Part shown: piece by piece, positions 7,170 to 7,688 of the stretch
Numbering within the stretch: the stretch's first letter is position 1
How the letters are laid out: the number at the start of each line of letters is the position of its first letter
Origin: an uncultured Muribaculaceae bacterium
GTDB taxonomy: Bacteria > Bacillota_I > Bacilli_A > RF39 > UBA660
Reading direction: 5' to 3'
Length of the DNA stretch: 34,068 nt
Assembly: GCA_964655835.1 (NCBI GenBank)
Contig: CAZZNR010000001.1
Span: 1 to 34,068 of the forward strand
The notes under the pieces: generated by a model
What the model saw: only the letters and a program-made list of their open reading frames with translations
Databases searched by the model: none
Told to the model about the DNA's origin: nothing
Translations under genes and position numbers: made by a program

Positions 7170-7688
7170 TTATTCTTTAACCTTTTTCAGTTCTAAAACA
7201 AATAAATATAATTGATATAAAAACAACACTAGAATTGGCATAATTATAACAAATAAGAACACCCACCTTGATGATAAGAAGCCAACTAAGGATCCCCATC
7301 CCGGATAAATTTGAACATCATTATTAGCTCCAATAATGCTATCTTGTCCTAATAAATAATCATTGTCCATTATAAAACTATTGGCTCCTTTTGGATTAGA
7401 ATTAACGATCATAACCCGGCCATAATTAATTATATTTTCTTTACTAGATGTATCATAGAAAAATATATAATCACCGGTTCTAATATCTTTATTATCGGTT
7501 TGTTTTACTATTAATAAATCCCCTTTTTGATAATTCTCAATATTTTTATTCATTACTAGAATAGATTTATTACCAAATTCTGCAACATTAAACTGATTAT
7601 AATTAAGTAAGTATACAGTTAGCAATATATCAATAACTAATATAAATCCAACTACAACCCACAAAACCATTTTCCCTATTTTTCTCAT
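7170..7688 (-). CDS. SipW-like pseudo-peptidase (S26B-like length and topology, catalytic Ser/His boxes absent)
   Basis: The ATG at 7688 (MRKIGKM..) has a GTGAGG RBS; the track start at 7706 includes that RBS. It has an N-terminal TM span and a C-terminal TM span (VFLFVIIMPILVLFLYQLY). It keeps the SPase-like GDLLIVKQ..GDYIFFY strand pattern, but KSILVMNKN replaces SM.P and NYGRVM replaces THR(V/I). It is a paralogue of 18429-18956. Confidence 0.6.
   Translation of the reverse strand: MRKIGKMVLWVVVGFILVIDILLTVYLLNYNQFNVAEFGNKSILVMNKNIENYQKGDLLIVKQTDNKDIRTGDYIFFYDTSSKENIINYGRVMIVNSNPKGANSFIMDNDYLLGQDSIIGANNDVQIYPGWGSLVGFLSSRWVFLFVIIMPILVLFLYQLYLFVLELKKVKE

Follow-up and report, generated by a model that had tools for sequence, protein, structure and literature searches.

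Where inactive homologues of an enzyme are kept by selection, they are often found at the core of a machine, in a regulatory or scaffolding part, as are the iRhoms and SipA. SipA (LepA) of Streptococcus pyogenes is a membrane protein with the signal peptidase fold, in which Asp and Gly take the places of Ser and Lys, and it is essential for pilus polymerisation (PMC4049620). The SipW of Bacillus subtilis, encoded in tapA-sipW-tasA, is an active Ser/His enzyme that has been reported to be bifunctional, with a second role beyond cleavage (Terra et al. 2012, as cited in PMC13082335). A further point of comparison is the locus class named CoCoPALM by Bell et al. (eLife 2024, PMC11090510), whose passages on this system already suggest that proteins of the signal peptidase family are pilus assembly factors. 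Here we describe two genes for SipW homologues devoid of the catalytic Ser and His, referred to as dead SipWs, in a window of 34,068 nucleotides (nt), the whole stretch of DNA that was analysed (contig CAZZNR010000001.1 of assembly GCA_964655835.1, positions 1 to 34,068), from an uncultured bacterium of the GTDB lineage Bacillota_I; Bacilli_A; RF39; UBA660. All coordinates without a further prefix are window positions, and the two genes are the following.

Dead SipW paralogue 1: 7170..7688, minus strand; 172 amino acids (aa), with an extracytoplasmic signal-peptidase beta core between an N-terminal and a C-terminal transmembrane (TM) helix; Ser replaced by Lys, His by Gly.
Dead SipW paralogue 2: 18429..18956, plus strand; 175 aa, opening the McrB arm of the locus; Ser replaced by Glu, His by Gly; member of a distinct sub-lineage of the dead clade.

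Both genes are predicted to encode catalytically inert pseudo-peptidases from the SipW/Sec11 (MEROPS S26B) lineage. Their closest functional analogue would appear to be SipA, the dead SipWs being probably an independent derivation from the S26B branch within a sortase-free, McrB-linked locus. As in SipA, a membrane protein with the signal peptidase fold has lost both catalytic residues, the general base being Gly in either case, and the gene lies within a cluster for a surface filament, a putative one in the window, beside the subunit genes. SipA is needed for assembly and not for cleavage, and by analogy an assembly role may be supposed for the dead SipWs. The differences are nevertheless substantial. 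SipA stems from the LepB type (S26A, Ser/Lys), whereas the nearest relatives of the dead SipWs are the SipW-type genes of the same loci (in the trees) and SEC11, which speaks for the Ser/His type (S26B) and against a LepB-type descent. The partners of SipA are a class-B sortase and LPXTG pilins, whereas the window has no sortase: a search for Sortase (PF04203) gave no match in contig C1 and three matches on contigs C117, C87 and C79 (LPXTG motifs were not searched for). SipA also has a conserved cleft, which in the dead SipWs is the most variable part, and it has neither their C-terminal TM helix motif nor a link to a McrB-like GTPase.

The B. subtilis SipW shares with the dead copies the fold lineage, the topology with N- and C-terminal TM helices and a place in an operon of exported fibre-type proteins, but the dead copies lack both of its catalytic residues and score below the cut-offs of the family models TIGR02228 and NF046067. 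Human SEC11A and SEC11C (PDB 7p2p, 7p2q) are the best structural and profile matches of the dead SipWs, but they are catalytic and have no C-terminal TM helix of the dead-SipW type. In the work behind these two structures, SEC11 is said to belong to a hetero-oligomeric complex in the membrane, the TM helices of which shape the selection of substrates. A preliminary description of this DNA compares the dead SipWs with accessory subunits of the signal peptidase complex of eukaryotes, which holds only loosely, because those subunits (SPCS1-3) are not SEC11 homologues; for the likeness to TapA drawn in the same place, neither a sequence nor a fold basis was found. SipA would be a closer precedent than either; that description mentions neither SipA nor the link to the McrB-like GTPase locus. 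A literature search for a catalytically inactive SipW signal peptidase returned no paper.

Homology, fold and catalytic residues

The homology of the dead copies to SipW-type peptidases is real though weak. Paralogue 1 matches TIGR02228, the NCBIfam model of the archaeal/endoplasmic reticulum (ER)-type signal peptidase I, with an E-value of 1.5e-7 and 31.4 bits against a curated cut-off of 51.85, and paralogue 2 matches NF046067 (SipW; NCBIfam) with an E-value of 3.5e-6 and 26.7 bits against a cut-off of 190, so that the curated threshold of an S26B family is reached in neither case. In Pfam neither copy had a match, Peptidase_S24 and S26 included. A single-sequence search of the PDB gave nothing useful and a family profile was required; this profile, for which the window enzymes were not used as a guide, matched human SEC11C (E 0.005) and SEC11A (E 0.016). 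The two paralogues match each other with an E-value of 7e-14 and 25% identity.

For comparison the window offers three intact SipWs (6006-6581, 23460-24032 and the C-terminal part of 1474-2607). In an alignment with them the dead copies keep the GDLLIV and GDYIFF strands and the two TM segments, as the preliminary description had noted. Where the intact enzymes have the Ser of (N/G)-S-M-x-P, paralogue 1 has Lys and paralogue 2 has Glu; where they have the His of (T/V)-H-(R/Q), both have Gly. The profile alignment to SEC11A and SEC11C agrees, since it places the SGSMEP box opposite a stretch that is variable and acidic, and the VHRV His opposite Gly, and thus restores neither residue. The absence of an Asp box, claimed along with the loss of the Ser and His boxes, is correct as far as the motif G-D-x-N is concerned, although the aligned column still holds N in 48, D in 31 and E in 25 of 111 homologues. 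The loss extends to the family: His was found at the His column in none of the 111 close homologues (G 63, A 15, D 15, T 7, S 6, others), no S-M box was found in any of them, and none of the 146 top representatives of clusters formed at 50% identity keeps both catalytic boxes.

The structure check proposed in the preliminary description bears out a fold of the S26B (SipW/SEC11) type. An AlphaFold2 (AF2) model of paralogue 1, built on an alignment of 86 sequences, has a mean predicted local distance difference test score (pLDDT) of 86.5 and a predicted template modelling score (pTM) of 0.70, with an N-terminal helix at residues 2-28, a beta core at 36-128 and a C-terminal helix at 141-171; the signal-peptidase beta-core fold with its N-terminal TM anchor is present. 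Foldseek against the PDB ranked SEC11C (7p2q_A; E 5e-4, probability 1.0) first, SEC11A (7p2p_A; probability 1.0) second and S. pyogenes SipA (4n31_A; probability 0.99) fourth, with TM-scores of about 0.5. The basic residues at both ends of the sequence and the positive-inside rule would fit an N-in/C-in topology, with short basic cytoplasmic termini, two flanking TM helices and the beta core outside.

As had been described, both open reading frames (ORFs) are intact and well placed for translation; they lie on opposite strands. The ORF of paralogue 1 extends over 7170..7706 from a TTG (178 aa), or over 172 aa from the ATG at 7688; the latter is supported by its orthologues, which start at the equivalent Met with MKK(I/L)GK, and a Shine-Dalgarno sequence, GTGAGG, lies 7 nt 5' of it. 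The stop of paralogue 1 and the start of the next gene, for a 193-aa protein, are separated by 2 nt, while in a related locus (L022) the downstream exported gene overlaps the stop of the dead SipW by 8 nt. The 3' end of paralogue 2 overlaps the next gene (ATG at 18931) by 26 nt.

Conservation, selection and single origin

The family is large and almost nameless. A single-sequence search retrieved 23 clusters with 46-100% identity and a profile search 112 clusters, in which only two proteins bear a database name, in both cases 'hypothetical protein'. When 1.84 billion cluster representatives were searched exhaustively with the profile, 64 of them matched at E<=1e-30, with a rise to 439 at E<=1e-10 and to 1679 at E<=1e-3, the weakest of which will include active SipWs. 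Conservation, measured as entropy over 248 family members, is highest in the C-terminal TM helix (TM2; mean 1.85), with the motif S140-x-W-G-F-L...P151...F-x-Y-(E/Q)-x-Y, followed by the stretch just past the N-terminal helix (TM1; 1.95), with the motif L-L-x-Y-N (LLxYN). Conservation is poorest in the segments where the Ser box (2.53) and the His box (2.92) used to be. Ser140, Asn31, Asp57, Asp73 and Tyr78 are kept in at least 90% of the family sequences, Ser140, at the start of TM2, being nearly invariant. Selection thus appears to have shifted from the old active site to the membrane-embedded and juxtamembrane parts.

The ratio of non-synonymous to synonymous substitution rates (dN/dS) was estimated pairwise by the Nei-Gojobori method on orthologue pairs with unsaturated dS (0.5-1.0). 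It is 0.059, 0.15 and 0.166 for paralogue 1 (0.15 for the window against the closest genome, G005) and 0.128, 0.134 and 0.28, in the same pairs, for the active SipW two genes downstream. Dead paralogue 1 is therefore under purifying selection as strict as that on the adjacent working enzyme; the paralogue 2 lineage has values of 0.22-0.34.

In a maximum-likelihood tree of 25 dead and 20 active sequences, all the dead ones fall on one side of a branch with 100/100 support, within which paralogue 2 belongs to a distinct and well-supported sub-lineage. The dead SipWs thus have a single origin, and the preliminary description was right to see in the two copies a conserved subfamily rather than random decay. 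Because the dead copies form one such clade, the tree is consistent with a single loss of catalysis. The likely starting point is a SipW directly upstream of McrB that keeps the Ser, in the form S-M-x-G, and the His, as seen in five loci that belong to other families within the class.

McrB-upstream active SipWs of simpler McrB-linked loci: L047:4421-5194, L048:3961-4728, L049:4842-5654, L053:6149-6889 and L054:3890-4594.

In these proteins S-M-x-G replaces S-M-x-P, and a long charged C-terminal tail extends past TM2. The split that joins them with the dead SipWs, apart from all the other active ones, has a moderate support of 89/85. The most economical account would be that the McrB-adjacent SipW lost its catalytic pair in a lineage that gained additional active paralogues. 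The genome has, moreover, a LepB-type signal peptidase (C21:6952-7392, 144.5 bits) and two further active-type SipW genes on other contigs, so that general secretion should be independent of the peptidase genes of the window.

Linkage to the McrB-like GTPase and the gene neighbourhood

The dead SipW is a core gene of its locus type. Among 61 relatives, 23 have the McrB-like gene and 22 of these match the dead SipW at E<=1.4e-12, the exception being a genome (G004) that is only 66% complete; none of the 38 McrB-negative relatives has a dead-SipW match better than 9e-9. Across the class, sampled evenly with 399 genomes, the dead profile matched at E<=1e-25 in 17, all of which carry a McrB-like gene on the same contig, while the McrB-like gene itself is far wider spread (150 of the 399). 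The other genes of the window that bear on this linkage are listed below.

SipW-type peptidase domain, intact, fused behind a polytopic membrane domain: 1474..2607, plus strand.
Intact SipW-type peptidase 'ACTa': 6006..6581, minus strand; NSMAP and THRV boxes; two genes downstream of paralogue 1; clades with the peptidase domain of large fusion proteins in related loci.
Exported protein of 193 aa: 6586..7167, minus strand; start 2 nt past the paralogue 1 stop; N-terminal TM/signal helix, disordered linker and beta-sandwich.
Promoter-like site: 7706..7735, minus strand; TTGAAT-18-TATAAT with a TG extension (extended -10), directly 5' of paralogue 1; a consensus match only, in DNA of 28% G+C.
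Exported protein of 302 aa: 18931..19839, plus strand; ATG within the last 26 nt of paralogue 2.
Protein of 319 aa: 19852..20811, plus strand; homologous to the C-terminal, presumably cytoplasmic domain of SipW fusion proteins of 670-834 aa.
Membrane-anchored McrB-like AAA+ GTPase homologue: 20818..22344, plus strand; E. coli McrB 6hz4 at E 2.4e-4, AAA_5 weak; co-occurs with the dead SipW.
McrC-N-like protein: 22352..23491, plus strand; DUF2357, E 1.1e-11.
Intact SipW-type peptidase 'ACTc': 23460..24032, plus strand; last peptidase gene in the McrB arm.

As in the CoCoPALM class, a membrane-anchored McrB-like GTPase and a McrC-like partner stand beside genes of the signal peptidase family, and these genes are linked to the GTPase across genomes, in the proportions given above and with conserved synteny. 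This assignment rests on the 6hz4 match, the DUF2357 match and the linked signal-peptidase genes. The relevant passages of Bell et al. (PMC11090510) name the system in one paragraph and defer its analysis; dead homologues, their origin and the selection on them are not mentioned there.

The left arm of the locus, on the minus strand, comprises genes for proteins of 236 aa, 322 aa, a giant of 2429 aa, a small ORF, 495 aa, the dead SipW, 193 aa, the active SipW, 196 aa and 337 aa, and this order recurs, with 57-76% identity, in contigs of independent metagenomes, including that of a biogas fermenter. The promoter-like site at 7706-7735 sits inside what appears to be a single long operon. The right arm consists of dead paralogue 2, the 302-aa and 319-aa proteins, the McrB-like and McrC-like proteins, an active SipW and a 196-aa protein. 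Most genomes of the same genus have a type-B locus, with a dead SipW followed directly by a protein of 670-834 aa with an active SipW at its N-terminus, then McrB and McrC. The C-terminal part of these fusion proteins resembles the 319-aa protein of the window (blastp E 2e-12 to 7e-9; L027:10643-12778, L028:7194-9698, L029:7160-9331, L034:10267-12279), which looks like a gene fusion or fission tying an active SipW to the McrB module.

The genome also holds a second McrB-like gene (G000:C15:5484-8100, 51% identity), after which comes a McrC-like sequence divided between two ORFs; contig C15, on which this pair lies, showed neither a SipW-like nor a dead-SipW gene. Elsewhere (G000:C11:8554-11770) there is a paralogous copy of the window's array of 204/205-aa exported proteins with a polytopic SipW fusion, the latter broken into the ORFs 10604-11347 and 11360-11770, which points to a frameshift or to an error of assembly.

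Proposed role and competing explanations

We propose that in fibre assembly the dead SipWs, themselves non-catalytic, serve the active SipWs as a membrane scaffold or partner, a reading to which we give somewhat better than an even chance. They would have been derived once, from the SipW that lies directly upstream of the membrane-anchored McrB-like GTPase where the locus is simpler, and the Ser/His pair would have been lost after additional active paralogues had taken over cleavage. We hypothesise that the C-terminal TM helix and the juxtamembrane LLxYN motif dock the active SipWs and/or the signal anchors of exported beta-sandwich subunits, and that this docking sets the place and order of subunit processing and assembly, by a logic such as that of SipA in streptococcal pili. 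Since selection is as strict as on the active enzymes, the dead SipWs would most likely be assembly helpers that do not cut; a role as non-catalytic subunit, receptor or chaperone, as raised in the preliminary description, is likewise an inference. The conservation pattern speaks more for an interaction via the TM and juxtamembrane parts than for binding in the old cleft.

Several observations weigh against this proposal. A relaxed form of the TM2 motif occurs in four of the five McrB-upstream active SipWs and three of eight ACTc peptidases (none of 13 other active ones), so that the motif, shared with close active relatives, is inherited, and its conservation may mean packing within the protein instead of docking. 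Conservation is among the lowest in the strands equivalent to those that line the canonical peptide-binding cleft, whereas the cleft of SipA is conserved, and this weakens a simple model in which signal peptides are bound in the old cleft. The ratio of dead to active copies is 2:3 in the window and 1:2 in type-B loci; a fixed 1:1 heterodimer of dead and active SipW, considered as a candidate, is not supported by the copy numbers across locus types. As for the subunits, the AF2 model of the 193-aa protein (pLDDT 76) has an N-terminal helix, a low-confidence linker at 27-39 and a beta-sandwich, with only generic beta-sandwich matches in Foldseek (E>1e-3), including the archaeal Hyper2/CanA tube subunit (9bab, probability 0.97). 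A phmmer search of this protein against the PDB, in which a TasA-like fibre subunit was sought, gave no match, and the 337-aa putative major subunit has no PDB sequence match. That the 193-aa neighbour is a fibre subunit is plausible, but the term stays tentative because the structural matches are only generic. Finally, one dead-SipW homologue (G280:C4:114812-115306) has an in-frame TAG, for which a pseudogene, a sequencing error or a recoded stop may be considered.

Among the other explanations, a strict SipA-like chaperone ranks second, because the conservation pattern favours TM and juxtamembrane contacts. Here the old cleft would hold, without cutting it, the signal-peptide c-region or the new N-terminal strand of one subunit and present it for polymerisation; paralogue 1 would hold the co-translated 193-aa protein in this way, and paralogue 2 the 302-aa protein. 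The SipA precedent with its conserved cleft, the fold retained at high model confidence and the tight coupling to the downstream exported gene (a gap of 2 nt in the window, overlaps of 8 nt in L022 and of 26 nt for paralogue 2) are in keeping with it. As the cleft-lining strands and the Ser/His boxes are the most variable segments of the family, and the next gene downstream varies by locus type (193-aa protein, 302-aa protein or large SipW fusion), we consider this chaperone function rather unlikely. A TM coupling element would be a different matter: the helices of the dead SipW would pack on an FtsB-like TM helix of the McrB-like GTPase and transmit or gate its activity to fibre assembly or export. 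The near-perfect co-occurrence and tight linkage with the McrB-like gene, the descent from the SipW directly upstream of McrB, the conservation peak in the TM helix and juxtamembrane motif, with a conserved Glu/Gln in TM2, and the fusion of McrB's 319-aa neighbour to an active SipW in related loci all point in this direction. However, the dead SipW has almost no cytoplasmic mass, so that any coupling would be purely intramembrane; 13 kb separate the McrB-like gene from paralogue 1, which sits in the other arm; and the second McrB/McrC-like pair on contig C15 is without a nearby dead SipW. We therefore hold such an element to be unlikely. In its widest form, the pseudo-SipW would be the coupling subunit of a GTP-driven machine for surface-fibre assembly or export in monoderms, in which a repurposed, membrane-anchored McrBC motor acts via the dead SipW's TM helices and via the cytoplasmic domain that is either fused to an active SipW or adjacent to it, and thereby times and places the cleavage and polymerisation of exported subunits; we put this forward as speculation of low probability.

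It is also conceivable, though improbable, that the dead SipW acts as a decoy or anti-peptidase, sequestering certain signal peptides from cleavage and so keeping a basal subunit membrane-anchored or delaying its processing. Besides several active SipWs, the window encodes about eleven candidate pre-proteins whose N-termini are similar, and a non-cleaving homologue could be a natural competitor for the same signals, but the poor conservation of the old cleft speaks against tight recognition of signal peptides. A hydrolase that works with other residues, such as the nearly invariant Ser140, would draw on the five well-conserved positions listed above. Such an alternative active site was rejected for want of a conserved base, no His or Lys being conserved for this purpose; Asp57 and Asp73 belong to structural GD motifs common to active SipWs, Ser140 lies at the membrane interface in a motif common to active relatives, and the analogous candidate residues of SipA were mutated without effect (PMC4049620), all of which makes this very improbable. 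As to a decaying pseudogene or a chance ORF, the catalytic residues are indeed gone and one distant homologue has an in-frame stop; nevertheless the reading is ruled out, with hardly any probability left to it, by a dN/dS of 0.06-0.17 that does not exceed that of the neighbouring active enzyme, an intact ORF in more than 100 sequence clusters, and conserved motifs and synteny.

The dead SipWs would represent an independent case of a signal peptidase turned into a non-enzyme, on the archaeal/ER-type branch and not on the LepB branch, in the setting of a widespread and uncharacterised CoCoPALM locus that couples a restriction-type GTPase to exported surface proteins. The same locus position is active in some loci and dead in others, which offers an evolutionary series, and the small, well-folded protein with its motifs LLxYN (post-TM1) and S-x-W-G-F...P...F-x-Y-E/Q (TM2) provides handles for experiments. 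No curated Pfam or NCBIfam model accepts the dead SipWs above its cut-off, and a family definition would therefore improve genome annotation. Their hosts are uncultured Bacilli with small genomes from animal-associated and digester metagenomes. The metagenome-assembled records with close orthologues (L036, L038-L043) are titled 'uncultured Muribaculaceae bacterium', labels that look wrong because these genomes of about 1 Mb and 28% G+C are classed beside 'Mollicutes bacterium' records.

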